DNA from: an uncultured Methanosarcinales archaeon
Lineage (GTDB): Archaea; Nanobdellota; Nanobdellia; Woesearchaeales; 21-14-0-10-32-9
NCBI GenBank assembly: GCA_964548665.1
Contig: CAZJQL010000003.1
Span: forward strand, 17,194 to 81,193
Length of the DNA stretch: 64,000 nucleotides
Direction: 5' to 3'
Positions 33,884 through 42,905 of the stretch are shown here, piece after piece. The stretch's first letter is position 1; every line of letters starts with the position of its first letter. The notes under the pieces are model-generated. The model worked only from the letters and a program-made list of their open reading frames with translations. It was not told where the DNA came from and did not search any database. The position numbers and the translations under genes were made by a program.

Positions 33884-34903
33884 TCAAGAAAGTAATTTAG
33901 GATAATCTCCTTTTTGTAATGATAATGTTAAATTTTTTAATATATCAGACAAATGTTTATTGGGGCCATCAAATAAATCGTAACCTTTAGATTTCAACCA
34001 AGAATCATTAAAAACCGAATTTAAATATCTTAGACCTGTATCTCCAACAATAACAACTTTTGGACCTTCAATGAAGTATTTTTTAGCTGCTGACAAAAGC
34101 ATACCTGTTGAAGAACCGAGTAAAAGACCTTTTTTCGCAAATAATTTTGCTTCGTGAATAGCATTAAAGTCAGAAACTTCTACAACATCATCAATTACTT
34201 CGAAATTCAAAACAGGAGAAACAAAGTCTTCACCCACACCTTCAATTAAAGTATCTGTCTCTTTAAAGGATCTTTTTAAATGGTGAAATGCTGAATATAA
34301 TTTTCCAGAATCAGGTGTGACGCCAATTATTTTTGTATCTGGTTTGAATTTCTTAAAATATGCGCCAATACCAGAAACAATTCCTCCCGTACCCATACCA
34401 ATAAACACGGCAGCAACATCAGGTAAATCTTTATGAATCTCAGGCGCCGTATATAATTCATGAGCTTTTGGATTCCATTCGTTTTCAAACTGATTGACAA
34501 AATATGAGTTTGGAATGCTCTCATGAATTTTTCTAGCAATTGACTTCATGCTTTGATCAGACTGTGATTCCGCATAATAATCCGCTATAACAACATTTGC
34601 ACCTAATGCCTTTAATGTTTTTAATTTTTCTTCACTTATTGAAGATTCAGCAACACATATAAATTCATGTCCTCTTTGTGCAGCAAGTAGTGCAAGACCT
34701 ATACCTAGATTTCCTGAACTATATTCTATAATAACGTCTCCTTTTTTTAATTTACCAGTTTTCTCAGCTTGTTCTAGTATGTATTTAGCAACCCTATCTT
34801 TTATAGAAAAACCAATATTATCAAATTCTAATTTAAGGTATATATCATCATATCGTAGCATTCGCGTATTTCCTATCAAATCTTCTAATTTTTCAAATAT
34901 CAT
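33884..34903 (-). CDS. PLP-dependent cysteine synthase / cystathionine beta-synthase family (fold type II) enzyme
   Basis: PLP-lysine motif FSIKDRVA, SSGNLGIGLALLAAQRG, and the phosphate-binding loop GMGTGGIVSGIG. I prefer the start at ATG 34903 (MIFEKLEDLIGNT), 4 nt after the stop of the upstream gene; the ORF-track start is 34948. Confidence 0.8.
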   Translation of the reverse strand: MIFEKLEDLIGNTRMLRYDDIYLKLEFDNIGFSIKDRVAKYILEQAEKTGKLKKGDVIIEYSSGNLGIGLALLAAQRGHEFICVAESSISEEKLKTLKALGANVVIADYYAESQSDQSMKSIARKIHESIPNSYFVNQFENEWNPKAHELYTAPEIHKDLPDVAAVFIGMGTGGIVSGIGAYFKKFKPDTKIIGVTPDSGKLYSAFHHLKRSFKETDTLIEGVGEDFVSPVLNFEVIDDVVEVSDFNAIHEAKLFAKKGLLLGSSTGMLLSAAKKYFIEGPKVVIVGDTGLRYLNSVFNDSWLKSKGYDLFDGPNKHLSDILKNLTLSLQKGDYPKLLS

Positions 34904-34907
34904 ATAA

Positions 34908-40700: not shown

Positions 40701-42276
40701 TATATTTTGTTAGTTTGTATAATGGAGACAGTTTTATGACTGTATTCTTAAAATATTTTTTAGTATTTTCATCTAAATGCGTAATTCCTTCTTCTAAGTA
40801 ATTCCTATCAAACATTTTCACAACCCAAGGAAGTTTATTTTTCATCAAATTTTCTAAGTTTTCAAAATCATTCATTTTGATTTGTTTTGGTAGAAATGAA
40901 AGCTCTCTTTTTTTATCCAACTCCGACTTTTGTATAAACATAAGACTTTCAGATATATGCTTGGCTAATTCTCTCAAATCTTTTCCTTTAACATTTAAAG
41001 CAGGAAAATGAGATAATTGATATCTGCAAAATCCAAAAGGCGATGATCCTGCCTGCGCTTGAACACTCTCATTATCCCACCATATTGAGTTATAAACAGA
41101 AACATTAGGTATTCCTAAATAATTAGCAGAGTGTGCAATAGATGTGTCGGTAGTTAGAAAAGCAGCACCATTTTTTCTTGTGAAATCATTCATTAATTCA
41201 GATATATCAGAATAATAATTTATACTGACAGAACTCATTTCTCCAGAATTTTTCATTATATCTAAGAAATCTAAGATCCAATTTGTATGATCTACATTCC
41301 TGTGATAACCACCCACAATAGTAAATGACGTATTTTTATTTTTTTCTTTAATATTTTTATGTACATGAAATACAAGTTCAGGATCTAAAAACCTATATGT
41401 GCTATTTGCAAAAGGATTTATGAAAAAAACATCACTATCTCTTTCTACAATATTTTTGTTTTTTTCAGTCTTTGTAATGTTTAGAAATGGTTCCAGACAA
41501 TCATCCATATAATCCTCTATATTTTTCGATCTTAACAGTGGATCTTCTTGACTGAAATGAAACACATTTTTTTCTCCATCTTCAATAGATATAATAATAT
41601 TTCTTCCGGGAATTGATATAGACACTTTTTCCTTATTTAAATTATTTATCAAGTTCATTGTTTTTTCCCAGTGCGTATCTATTAAATCAGGAATGATGAT
41701 AACATCTCCTTCACACACATTGTTAATTATTTTTTCTACAGACTTTTCATAAACTTTGTGTGACGTTACAAGATGGTTGATTTGGGATGAATATATTTCT
41801 ATATCAAACGTATTCAGCGAATCTTTGAAAGCATCCAGAAAATATAATCCTATATAAGAATCTCCTATAAAATCATAAGGATCTACGTAAATTAATTTTT
41901 TATTTTTTGAAAGTTTATTATTAACTATATTTCTGAATTCGTCAATTGATTTAATCTCTTTATATGTGTTGGATACTTCTTCGAGTTCATTCCTTTGTTC
42001 AGTTCTTATTGATTCTCCTCTTGTTATTATTTTGATTTTTTGATTATTGGGAGTTATAAGTTCATTAAGTTCTATCGTTTTAAGAGGAAATGGGAACCCT
42101 ATCTGAATTGAAGAAGTTCCTTCTTCCCCGTGTGCAAAATATATTAACAAATCTCTATTAATTTCTTTTAGTGTGTAAACTTTATTTTTTTTTAGAGATT
42201 GTATGATCATATCAGATAAGTTTTCAGAAGATATTTTATCCATGATTGATTTTTTATCTATATCATAATTTTTCAT
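40678..42276 (-). CDS. Glycosyltransferase family 9 (heptosyltransferase)-like protein with a ~115-aa N-terminal extension
   Basis: KLIYVDPYDFIGDSYIGLYFLDAFKDSL aligns to the GT9 N-terminal lGD motif. FTIVGGYH...ISELMNDFTRKNGAAFLTTDTSIAHSANYLGIPNVSVYN aligns to the GT9 C-terminal nDSG..HlAaAlG.P.v.lfG. Recognition is from memory of the family pattern. Confidence 0.5.
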   Translation of the reverse strand: MKNYDIDKKSIMDKISSENLSDMIIQSLKKNKVYTLKEINRDLLIYFAHGEEGTSSIQIGFPFPLKTIELNELITPNNQKIKIITRGESIRTEQRNELEEVSNTYKEIKSIDEFRNIVNNKLSKNKKLIYVDPYDFIGDSYIGLYFLDAFKDSLNTFDIEIYSSQINHLVTSHKVYEKSVEKIINNVCEGDVIIIPDLIDTHWEKTMNLINNLNKEKVSISIPGRNIIISIEDGEKNVFHFSQEDPLLRSKNIEDYMDDCLEPFLNITKTEKNKNIVERDSDVFFINPFANSTYRFLDPELVFHVHKNIKEKNKNTSFTIVGGYHRNVDHTNWILDFLDIMKNSGEMSSVSINYYSDISELMNDFTRKNGAAFLTTDTSIAHSANYLGIPNVSVYNSIWWDNESVQAQAGSSPFGFCRYQLSHFPALNVKGKDLRELAKHISESLMFIQKSELDKKRELSFLPKQIKMNDFENLENLMKNKLPWVVKMFDRNYLEEGITHLDENTKKYFKNTVIKLSPLYKLTKYIGGEFID

Positions 42277-42905
42277 AAAAGCACCTCTGTGTTAATTATT
42301 ATAGGAGAATATGGTGAAAACTTATCTTTTAAAAAATTTTTATCTTCTAATGAATTTGGAAAATCCACATCAACAAGCATAAATCCATGAATTTTAGATT
42401 GATTTTTATAGTATTCATTAATATATTTATAAAATTCTTCATCATAGGGTGCTTCCAAACAACTAGCTGTTTTTTCACCTCCAGATCTTTTTTTAATTCT
42501 CTGAATATAATTATTTGAAGAATATAGTGCGATTGTTTGTGGAAATATAAATGTTTTTCCTAGATTTTCTTCTATTGATTTTTTTACCCGCCATAAATTT
42601 CCAACACCATACTTTCTATGACGCGCATAAATGTATGACAGTGTTGAGAACAACAACCTGTTCGATAGTAAGTTTCTTGAATTTATTGCACAGTCATATC
42701 TTTGATATTCTTTCTGCAAAAACCATTCATCAGATTTTTCAATGTCTAATTCGTTCAAGCTAAATTTTGGCAATAGACTCAGAGAAGATATAATTTCAGT
42801 GATTTCTTTTTGCTCTTTGAATTTCGGATTCTGTTCTATTTGCCTTCTTATGAAGTATGATTTTCCAATTGCATTTTGTCCTTCAACTACGAACACATCA
42901 TTCAT
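42273..42905 (-). CDS. P-loop nucleoside/nucleotide-kinase-like protein (first gene of the operon; paralogue of 37971-38564)
   Basis: Walker A in VFVVEGQNAIGKS, with DEWFLQ and NRLLFSTLSYIYA segments parallel to the other kinase-like protein. The stop overlaps the next ATG (ATGA). Confidence 0.55.
   Translation of the reverse strand: MNDVFVVEGQNAIGKSYFIRRQIEQNPKFKEQKEITEIISSLSLLPKFSLNELDIEKSDEWFLQKEYQRYDCAINSRNLLSNRLLFSTLSYIYARHRKYGVGNLWRVKKSIEENLGKTFIFPQTIALYSSNNYIQRIKKRSGGEKTASCLEAPYDEEFYKYINEYYKNQSKIHGFMLVDVDFPNSLEDKNFLKDKFSPYSPIIINTEVLL

Follow-up and report, generated by a model that had tools for sequence, protein, structure and literature searches.

Two adjoining gene cassettes with a GT9-like glycosyltransferase, a radical-SAM enzyme and a diverged AspRS paralogue in an archaeal genome

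Positions 33,884 to 42,905 of a 64,000-nucleotide stretch of DNA from an uncultured archaeon (contig CAZJQL010000003.1 of assembly GCA_964548665.1; the whole stretch is hereafter called the window) carry ten genes that a first-pass annotation of the letters had described as one unit built around a paralogue of an aminoacyl-tRNA synthetase (aaRS). The ten open reading frames (ORFs) were confirmed at their coordinates and strands, and their overlapping junctions and family assignments hold up against the ORF list, the sequence, and the Pfam, Foldseek and profile evidence. The cluster is real, tightly coupled and made up of non-housekeeping genes, and we found no described system that it matches. 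However, it is not a single unit: the block consists of two separately conserved cassettes that adjoin each other in an archaeal genome of low GC content. Cassette A (42905-36864) encodes a kinase (K1), a GT9-like glycosyltransferase (GT9L), a radical S-adenosylmethionine (SAM) enzyme, a paralogue of aspartyl-tRNA synthetase (AspRS), a second kinase (K2), an S51 peptidase and a Nudix hydrolase, and cassette B consists of a QueC-like and a CysK-like gene, with a HIT gene nearby. The invariant core of cassette A is the translationally coupled GT9L/radical-SAM pair, and the aaRS slot beside it is accessory, the type of synthetase varying by lineage. We tentatively suggest that cassette A encodes a pathway for a small molecule, namely a nucleoside or nucleotide that is both aminoacylated and glycosylated, an explanation to which we give somewhat less than an even chance.

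Recurrence of the cassettes and the variable synthetase slot

Scans of GTDB genomes and JGI metagenomes, together with contig look-ups, yielded 36 other GT9L loci, non-redundant at 90% identity, whose named sources are Nanoarchaeota, Woesearchaeota, Micrarchaeota and metagenome-assembled genomes (MAGs) labelled Gammaproteobacteria, Pseudomonadota or bacterium. Because the gene order recurs in other genomes, the layout seen in the window is more than chance. In 26 of these loci, no more than 1.7 kb separates GT9L from a radical-SAM gene; nine of the ten remaining have less than 600 bp on at least one side of GT9L, and L012, with 9.8 kb on both sides, has no radical-SAM gene. Kinases of the K1, K2 or APH type are present in 20/36 loci, and the hydrolases that recur near GT9L belong to the S51 (9/36), Nudix, HD and HIT families.

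Several arrangements can be told apart. Type I (K1, GT9L, radical SAM and K2, with or without Nudix, HD and S51) is found in the window, L001 and L003, and type Ib (GT9L, radical SAM, a 397-aa protein, K1 and S51) in L010, L011 and L027. Type II is longer and runs from a PheS-like ligase through radical SAM, HD, radical SAM, DUF4254 and radical SAM to an APH-type kinase, GT9L, a PheS-like ligase, a methyltransferase and HIT (L005, L036 and L040). Type III, with an ISL3 transposase beside it, is composed of asparaginyl-tRNA synthetase (AsnRS), an unknown protein, a PIG-L deacetylase, GT9L, radical SAM, a second AsnRS, S51 and GT4 (L046 and L018/L049); a PDB sequence search with its 359-aa unknown protein gave nothing. 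Transposases are next door in L046 and, for cassette B, in L023, and the patchy spread over DPANN lineages and bacterial MAGs, combined with these transposases, fits a mobile accessory pathway.

The synthetase slot is the variable part. An aaRS or aaRS paralogue occurs within 10 kb of GT9L in 19/36 loci (the AlaRS-like proteins of L010, L011 and L027 included), and six kinds are found there: AspRS-like, AlaRS-like, PheS-like SrmL, duplicated AsnRS, AspRS and GluRS. The AspRS paralogue occupies the slot in the window and on the contig of its homologue P0095. A truncated AlaRS-like paralogue, whose profile matches the AlaRS structure 2ztg at 9e-14, is encoded in L027 (5428-6618), L010 (5528-6685), L011 (4083-5291) and L015 (18521-20218). 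Its members are about 390 aa long (397 aa in type Ib) and possess an N-terminal Cys4 and the AlaRS-type motifs Q-P-x-I-R and G-L-E-R; the gene sits between the radical-SAM gene and K1, and in L015 it is 7 kb from GT9L. The PheS-like gene of L005 (11846-12982) belongs to NCBIfam NF051887, 'PheS-related mystery ligase SrmL' (428.9 bits against a cut-off of 300). Such genes, often two per locus, are also found in L036, L037, L043, L048 and L040 (2372-3541 and 10914-12104; the second SrmL copy of L040 scores 247.7 bits). Since SrmL is curated as an NCBIfam family, curators have noticed the system without explaining it; our literature search found no paper on SrmL. The window ligase does not match NF051887 among its 16 NCBIfam matches. 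In bacterial MAG loci, two intact AsnRS that are 56% identical (674 and 638 bits against 414) flank the core, at 1669-3096 and 8863-10248 in L018 (L018/L049) and at 3942-5336 and 10878-12260 in L046. Moreover, AspRS directly follows the radical-SAM gene in L016 and is nearby in L019, and a bacterial GluRS directly follows GT9L in L035.

Cassette B has its own distribution. The QueC-like family comprises nine clusters (eight besides that of the window), and the CysK-like gene, a member of the PALP family, adjoins the QueC-like gene in every context read (L021/L022, L023/L024, L025 and L060). None of the 36 other GT9L loci contains the QueC-like cassette. The window thus juxtaposes two cassettes, both of which tend to have genes for HIT proteins and Asp/Asn synthetases close by. 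A HIT gene is found with the QueC-like/PALP pair in L021, L022 and L025, and with GT9L in L005 and L015; canonical AspRS turns up repeatedly next to members of the paralogue family and next to the cassettes. Other neighbours of cassette B are a PNP_UDP_1 gene and a methyltransferase gene (fused in L023, separate in L025) and phosphoribosyltransferase (PRTase)-like genes (L025 and L023), and in L023 also ABC transporters and an ND-type AspRS (444.7 bits). The pair was seen once in IMG/VR, at the end of a contig classed there as viral (L060 6820-9431, IMGVR_UViG_2788500373_000001).

The AspRS paralogue and its companions

The AspRS paralogue (38564..39784, minus strand; tRNA-synt_2 1.7e-38) is 25% identical to the product of the adjacent aspS and reaches 158 bits on the ND-AspRS model NF003483, for which the cut-off is 353. 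It keeps the N-terminal OB domain and the ATP-binding arginines of motif 2 and motif 3 (FRG...H.SE; G-V-G-I-D-R). However, QSPQLYK is changed to ISNLLYH with the loss of Lys198, E-I-T-T-G-G-Q-R, which includes the Asp-binding Gln-Arg, is changed to Q-L-A-D-G-S-V-K, and a metal-binding Glu is replaced as well. QSPQ is absent from 12/12 members of the paralogue family and kept in 11/11 canonical AspRS of the alignment. Retention of the ATP-binding residues together with loss of the Asp-binding ones argues, at the level of sequence, for a new substrate or acceptor of the window paralogue and not for ordinary tRNA-Asp charging.

The family is small. A word-indexed search of 5.8 billion proteins found nothing above 26% identity besides the paralogue itself, and a scan of GTDB genomes with the single protein found nothing; an exhaustive HMMER search over 1.84 billion representatives recovered a small clade (P0095-P0105) at 26-37% identity. 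In a neighbour-joining tree without support values, this clade is sister to canonical AspRS and separate from AsnRS and AsnA. An ordinary AspRS or AsnRS is therefore ruled out by the model score, the loss of QSPQ and Lys198, and the separate clade, as the first-pass annotation had supposed in calling the protein a paralogue. Nor is it an asparagine synthetase A (AsnA or archaeal AS-AR), since it scores 71 bits against 309, retains the OB domain and groups with AspRS.

The neighbours of other family members are varied. On the P0095 contig, radical-SAM, kinase and paralogue genes are followed by a convergent full-length class IIb aaRS of 427 aa, which was identified by Pfam (tRNA-synt_2 plus anticodon domain) and has no NCBIfam score. 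P0096 and P0100 adjoin S51 genes, P0098 adjoins an Orn/DAP/Arg decarboxylase gene, and the P0097 contig carries a canonical AspRS (468.6 bits). This last contig (L058 1-9662; GCA_030673485.1, DAOVJD010000014.1) encodes three class IIb aaRS homologues within 9.6 kb, namely the QSPQ-less P0097, a 373-aa AsnA/AsnRS-like protein without an OB domain, and the canonical AspRS. Its other genes encode an S66 (MccF/LdcA-family) peptidase, a SAM decarboxylase, a methyltransferase and DapB.

GT9L (40678..42276, minus strand), a GT-B glycosyltransferase of 532 aa, was assigned by structure, as it has no match in Pfam, NCBIfam or PADLOC. An AF2 model built from a 30-sequence alignment (pLDDT 92.8) has the GT9 (heptosyltransferase) fold, and its best Foldseek matches are the GT9 heptosyltransferases 3tov and WaaC (also 2h1f and 2gt1), with probability 1.0, TM 0.57-0.62 and 10-12% identity. 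The fold is thus closest to the WaaC/WaaF type, yet the window protein does not match PF01075, and one homologue scores 17.9 bits on that model, below the gathering score of 22. Family-specific extensions of about 120 residues at the N-terminus and about 60 at the C-terminus are present, and a conserved motif, T-x-D-T/S-x-x-x-H, resembles the nucleotide-sugar motif of GT9. About 46 homologue clusters were found, mostly in Nanoarchaeota-type MAGs, and none in IMG/VR contigs.

The radical-SAM enzyme (39774..40700, minus strand; 308 aa; Pfam Radical_SAM 1e-15) contains the invariant CxxxCxxC motif (C18-x3-C22-x2-C25). Only five conserved C-terminal cysteines are found (C248, C266, C289, C291 and C296) in place of the full seven-Cys SPASM motif, which reads as a shortened SPASM or twitch-like arrangement. 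Among its 59 NCBIfam matches, all far under their cut-offs, the best 25 are SPASM/twitch families, and its sequence neighbours are SkfB and BlsE in the PDB and PapB, SkfB and ScmE in NCBIfam/PDB.

The kinases K1 (42273..42905, minus strand), the first gene product of cassette A, and K2 (37971..38564, minus strand) are paralogous members of the thymidylate kinase (TMPK)/deoxynucleoside kinase (dNK) family. K1 has no Pfam match and carries a Walker A GxxxxGKS and a DR/ERS-like motif; K2 was assigned through a profile with K1. The two have Walker A, W-F and D/E-R-x-x-x-S motifs in common, and their joint profile matches thymidylate and deoxynucleoside kinase structures at 1e-8 to 1e-4. Homologues of K1 adjoin GT9L in L001, L003, L010-L012 and L027, and those of K2 adjoin the radical-SAM gene in L001, L003 and L009; on the P0095 contig, the kinase gene lies between the radical-SAM gene and the paralogue.

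Hydrolases complete the cassette. The S51 serine peptidase (37277..37939, minus strand; Peptidase_S51 2.8e-24), of the PepE/cyanophycinase family, has a GxSAG nucleophile elbow, scores 64 bits on the PepE model (cut-off 156) and matches GATase_3 at 4e-6; S51 genes also adjoin paralogue-family genes in L007 and L062. The Nudix hydrolase (36864..37280, minus strand; NUDIX 7e-17) is encoded by the last gene of cassette A and has homologues beside the cassette in L001/L026, L031 and L051. The HIT protein (36451..36855, plus strand; HIT 4e-20) is a HinT-type nucleotide hydrolase.

The QueC-like PP-loop ATPase encoded by the first gene of cassette B (34908..36293, minus strand; QueC 3.6e-6, 27.1 bits, gathering score 22) has 461 aa, as opposed to about 220 for QueC, with extra N- and C-terminal domains. 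The PP-loop motif (SGGKDS), a Cys cluster (C265/C273/C276/C279) and the fold agree with QueC, but the equivalog TIGR00364 gives 19.3 bits against 150.3. Foldseek matched an AF2 model (pLDDT 74.6) to QueC only (2pg3 and 3bl5), over about 220 of the 461 residues, and a search of PDB sequences with the protein gave nothing. The PALP protein (33884..34903, minus strand; PALP 4e-57) is a fold-type II pyridoxal phosphate (PLP) enzyme of the CysK/CBS/SbnA group, for which all NCBIfam equivalogs are below their cut-offs. In fact, none of the window proteins assigned by Pfam or NCBIfam (radical SAM, paralogue, S51, Nudix, HIT, QueC-like and PLP) attains any equivalog cut-off, and PADLOC gave weak, generic matches only.

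The cluster has a G+C content of 28-30% in a window averaging about 31%, and the closest homologues of the proteins of this genome are in DPANN (Nanoarchaeota-type) MAGs. The stop of K1 and the start of GT9L share ATGA; overlaps of 23 nt (GT9L/radical SAM) and 11 nt (radical SAM/AspRS paralogue) follow, then a TAATG in which the K2 start overlaps the paralogue stop, a gap of 31 nt between K2 and S51 (37940-37970), and a TTGA at the S51/Nudix junction. The HIT gene runs convergently towards Nudix, whose stop is 8 nt away, and divergently from the QueC-like gene; the latter is separated from PALP by 4 nt if PALP starts at the ATG at 34903. The canonical archaeal-type aspS (43014-44312, plus strand; 524.6 bits on NF003483, cut-off 353) is divergent from K1, and the 108-nt spacer between them (42906-43013) looks like a divergent promoter: it carries two TATA-like boxes (TTTATAAA), one for each start codon and about 25 nt ahead of it. 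A third TTTATAAA box lies within the K2/S51 gap and may be an internal promoter.

On the other side is a tRNA-Ala(GGC) gene (33643-33716), the only element found by an Rfam scan of 33000-47000. The island probably extends beyond aspS into a flank (44382-46837) in which Pfam identifies a second Nudix protein (44382-44831, minus strand), an HD + HD_assoc_2 phosphohydrolase (44866-45999, minus strand) and a HAD hydrolase (46190-46837, plus strand); in L003 and in type II loci, too, the cassette has HD genes on its flank. Farther away, two ORFs upstream of the GluRS gene, an ORF (30498-31184) encodes a 228-aa protein whose C-terminal half is of low complexity and rich in Q, N and P.

A possible pathway and its alternatives

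From the gene content, the folds, the family memberships, the conserved core, the variable slot and the lost Asp-binding residues, we infer each chemical step and the nature of the product. K1 and K2 would phosphorylate a nucleoside scaffold, the radical-SAM enzyme would remodel its sugar, and GT9L would transfer a sugar activated by ADP or another NDP. The QSPQ-less paralogue might then adenylate an acidic or related amino acid and ligate it to the scaffold, and S51, Nudix and HIT could serve to trim or proof-read the product, to render it harmless, or to split intermediates of the aminoacyl-nucleotide kind. The full-length aaRS beside the cassette (aspS here, paired AsnRS elsewhere) may supply adenylate, provide self-resistance or do both, as AbmK does for albomycin. 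Two features in particular suggest such a product. The TMPK/dNK kinases and the many hydrolases of the Nudix, HD, HIT and HAD families, those beyond aspS included, suggest that the scaffold is a nucleoside or nucleotide, and an interchangeable synthetase slot beside a fixed core of GT9L, radical SAM and kinase argues that the aminoacyl group, or the synthetase as a target, is intrinsic to the system. Cassette B seems to be a separate module for tailoring a nucleobase or an amino acid, which may feed the same product here.

The first-pass annotation had raised three chemistries, and among them an aminoacyl- or glycosyl-nucleoside, or a deazapurine-type metabolite, fits the evidence best. A tRNA-dependent conversion of the PSTK/SepSecS kind finds no footing, as the kinases are TMPK/dNK-like and not KTI12/PSTK, and the PLP enzyme is a fold-type II relative of CysK that belongs to the other cassette; a SepRS/SepCysS or PSTK/SepSecS route calls for a fold-type I PLP enzyme and a PSTK-type kinase and was rejected. 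Protein aminoacylation in the manner of EpmA/EpmB fails too, with 61.9 bits on the EpmA model against 286.9, and no lysine-aminomutase among the best 25 of the 59 NCBIfam matches of the radical-SAM enzyme.

A broader version of the preferred explanation, possible in our view and on the doubtful side, is a modular class of pathways in which a swappable synthetase module (Asp-, Ala-, Phe-, Asn- or Glu-type) would pick the amino acid that is joined to a radical-SAM-remodelled glycosyl-nucleotide. Its products might be mimics of aminoacyl-adenylates or of aminoacyl-tRNA ends, or the outcome might be a tRNA-dependent glyco-aminoacylation.

Several observations weigh against the proposed small-molecule pathway. 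L001, L003, L012 and L044 have no aaRS despite about 10 kb on both sides, so an aaRS is not obligatory. The best matches of the radical-SAM enzyme, all weak, are peptide maturases (PapB and SkfB) as much as nucleoside enzymes (BlsE and MoaA). S51 accompanies Asp-, Asn-, Ala- and Phe-type loci, and is hence not obviously Asp-specific. Cassettes A and B are adjacent in this window only. No product has been demonstrated, cassette A contains no transporter gene, and no protein is a demonstrated orthologue of a characterised nucleoside-antibiotic enzyme. Moreover, regions that bind tRNA are retained in the AspRS paralogue, in the PheS-like ligase (as its FDX-ACB domain) and in the AlaRS-like protein, and some of the partners are synthetases of entirely canonical type; tRNA-dependent chemistry thus fits at least as well as adenylate chemistry.

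This last point leads to the alternative that survives best, which we nevertheless consider unlikely: a tRNA-directed or aminoacyl-tRNA-dependent system in which the synthetase selects or charges a tRNA, and kinase, radical SAM and GT9L modify that tRNA or, with the aminoacyl-tRNA as donor, aminoacylate a glycoside, a lipid or a polymer. GluQRS, glycosyl-queuosine, MprF/ErdS and VlmL/VlmA are parallels. The OB domain kept by the paralogue is an anticodon-binding domain, FDX-ACB is kept in the PheS-like ligase, the AlaRS-like protein aligns through the N-terminal region of archaeal AlaRS, and many slot partners are fully canonical AsnRS, AspRS or GluRS. A full-length class IIb aaRS adjoins the paralogue in three lineages (34-36% mutual identity; canonical AspRS confirmed in two). 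The QueC-like gene is adjacent in the window, and in bacteria and eukaryotes the tRNAs for Asp and Asn are among those that carry queuosine; however, archaea have archaeosine and not queuosine, and the QueC-like cassette does not accompany GT9L elsewhere. No tRNA-guanine transglycosylase, Fem/GNAT-type or DUF2156 aminoacyl-transferase is found among the ten window proteins, related loci not having been searched for these. A housekeeping tRNA modification would also be lineage-wide, whereas the cassette is scattered in its distribution and associated with mobile elements, and the duplicated AsnRS of single loci is hard to explain in this way.

Two further explanations seem improbable to us, and about equally so. 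The paralogue, S51 and the adjacent kinase could form a set that makes or hydrolyses aspartate amides (an asparagine or aspartyl-amide synthetase, GatCAB-like and tRNA-dependent or AsnA-like and acting on the free amino acid), with a secondary link to GT9L and radical SAM. An S51 or S66 peptidase is indeed beside paralogue-family genes in 4/6 contexts (the window, L007, L062 and L058), and the GATase_3 match reflects a class I amidotransferase-like fold of S51. A kinase also adjoins the paralogue in both the window and the P0095 contig, and aspartate-family genes (DapB, Orn/DAP/Arg decarboxylase and AsnA-like) are near P0097 and P0098. However, the S51 nucleophile is a serine and that of glutaminases a cysteine, the AsnA model is far from reached, the residues lost from the paralogue are precisely the Asp-binding ones, and the same core takes AlaRS-, PheS- and GluRS-type partners.

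The other is a cell-envelope glycoconjugate pathway, in which the GT9-type enzyme would transfer a heptose-like sugar and the aaRS genes would be bystanders of tandem duplication. GT9 enzymes are heptosyltransferases of lipopolysaccharide, and GT4, PIG-L deacetylase and GT2 are encoded in some related loci. Yet six kinds of aaRS occur within 10 kb in 19/36 loci, where we estimate that a few percent would be expected for each synthetase in a genome of at least 1 Mb. Furthermore, the ten window proteins include no match to a membrane, flippase or polyprenyl-phosphate family, and the kinases are of the nucleoside/nucleotide type and not sugar kinases.

An antiviral or toxin-type generator of nucleotide analogues, in the style of viperin plus a kinase and with hydrolases protecting the host, is highly improbable. 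The nucleotide kinases, the Nudix, HD and HIT hydrolases and weak PADLOC matches (radical SAM to pVip, 1e-12 and partial; K2 to VakA, 0.003) are in its favour, and 4'-thiothymidine offers a precedent (PMC12691670). Viperin identity of the radical-SAM enzyme was nonetheless rejected, with 36.5 bits against 180 on the prokaryotic viperin model NF038283; GT9L is absent from IMG/VR contigs, the window has no defence-island features, and the aaRS slot would be left unexplained. Least probable of all is a cluster for ribosomally synthesised and post-translationally modified peptides (RiPPs) or other peptide modification, with the radical-SAM enzyme as SPASM maturase and S51 as leader peptidase beside a glycosyltransferase and a kinase, since the nearest relatives of the radical-SAM enzyme (PapB, SkfB and ScmE) fit it but its 308 aa include no RRE-type N-terminal extension, and the tightly overlapped window cluster leaves no room for a precursor gene. 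The two small DUF4254 ORFs of type II loci were rejected as RiPP precursors, since together they make up a single domain of 144 positions that has been split in two.

A minimal metabolism is usually ascribed to DPANN archaea, and to our knowledge no specialised-metabolite pathway is known from them. If the proposed small-molecule pathway is real, it would be the first of natural-product type to be described from DPANN archaea, and its product a possible weapon or signal in their symbioses. The occurrence of the cassette across Nanoarchaeota, Woesearchaeota, Micrarchaeota and some bacterial MAGs would give a concrete handle on the interaction between episymbiont and host. The pathway would also add new aaRS paralogues with non-translational roles, SrmL being already a 'mystery ligase' to NCBI curators. 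Should the products inhibit aaRS, the neighbouring synthetase would name the target, and the cassette would be a target-labelled marker for genome mining. There is no Pfam or NCBIfam model for the GT9-like family, the QSPQ-less AspRS clade, the truncated AlaRS-like family or the enlarged QueC-like family.

Comparison with known systems

Our literature search on this gene combination found nothing relevant, and a study of genome mining guided by tRNA deacylases (PMC13149037) proved to be unrelated to the cassette. The nearest named relative is the SrmL system, which occupies the same GT9L-adjacent slot in type II loci; the window ligase, however, is derived from AspRS and not from PheS. For cassette B, the QueC fold, the PP-loop SGGKDS and a Cys4-type zinc site recall QueC and ToyM, and the PRTase and nucleosidase neighbours recall toyocamycin-type pathways. 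The QueC-like protein is nevertheless twice the size and always paired with a CysK-like PLP enzyme, and no QueD, QueE or FolE family member is among the 20 window proteins scanned.

In mycothiol synthesis, a glycosyltransferase and a deacetylase act with the aaRS homologue MshC, which ligates an amino acid to an aminosugar. Type III loci likewise combine a PIG-L deacetylase, GT-B transferases and aaRS genes, as in mycothiol or bacillithiol synthesis. The aaRS considered here, however, is a class II protein of the Asp/Asn type and not CysRS-like, the window has no deacetylase, and the radical-SAM enzyme and nucleotide kinases of the cassette have no counterpart in thiol synthesis.

Microcin C-type systems (MccB, MccD/Mtn and MccE, with MccF/MccH immunity and AspRS as the target) share with the window an aspartyl theme, a HIT hydrolase, a candidate Asp-X serine peptidase and AspRS genes. 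The likeness extends to the methyltransferase and PNP_UDP_1 genes beside the QueC-like cassette elsewhere, and to the S66 (MccF-family) peptidase gene beside P0097. The window peptidase is S51 and not S66, however, and there is no ThiF/MccB match among the ten window proteins and no intergenic space for a precursor-peptide gene.

In albomycin biosynthesis, AbmF uses seryl-adenylate made by AbmK, the SerRS of the cluster and a source of immunity as well, and AgnB2, MccF and MccH (a HIT enzyme) shield the organisms that make aaRS inhibitors (PMC8323819). The 4'-thiothymidine cluster thmA-C comprises genes for a radical-SAM enzyme and an AbmG-like nucleoside kinase together with an NTPase gene for resistance (PMC12691670). 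The albomycin genes (AbmG, AbmM/AbmJ, AbmF and AbmK) and thmA-C resemble the window at the family level, with a dNK-family kinase, a small radical-SAM enzyme, an aaRS in or near the cluster, a PLP enzyme and a nucleotide hydrolase capable of conferring resistance. Unlike albomycin, the window possesses a GT9-like enzyme, its cassette has no siderophore or other carrier part, and its hosts are DPANN archaea and uncultured bacteria; AbmK is an ordinary copy that is resistant, but the aaRS of the window, of the Asp type, has diverged strongly. The system is thus undescribed, and its logic, if our reading is right, is a variant of the known aaRS-linked nucleoside pathways.

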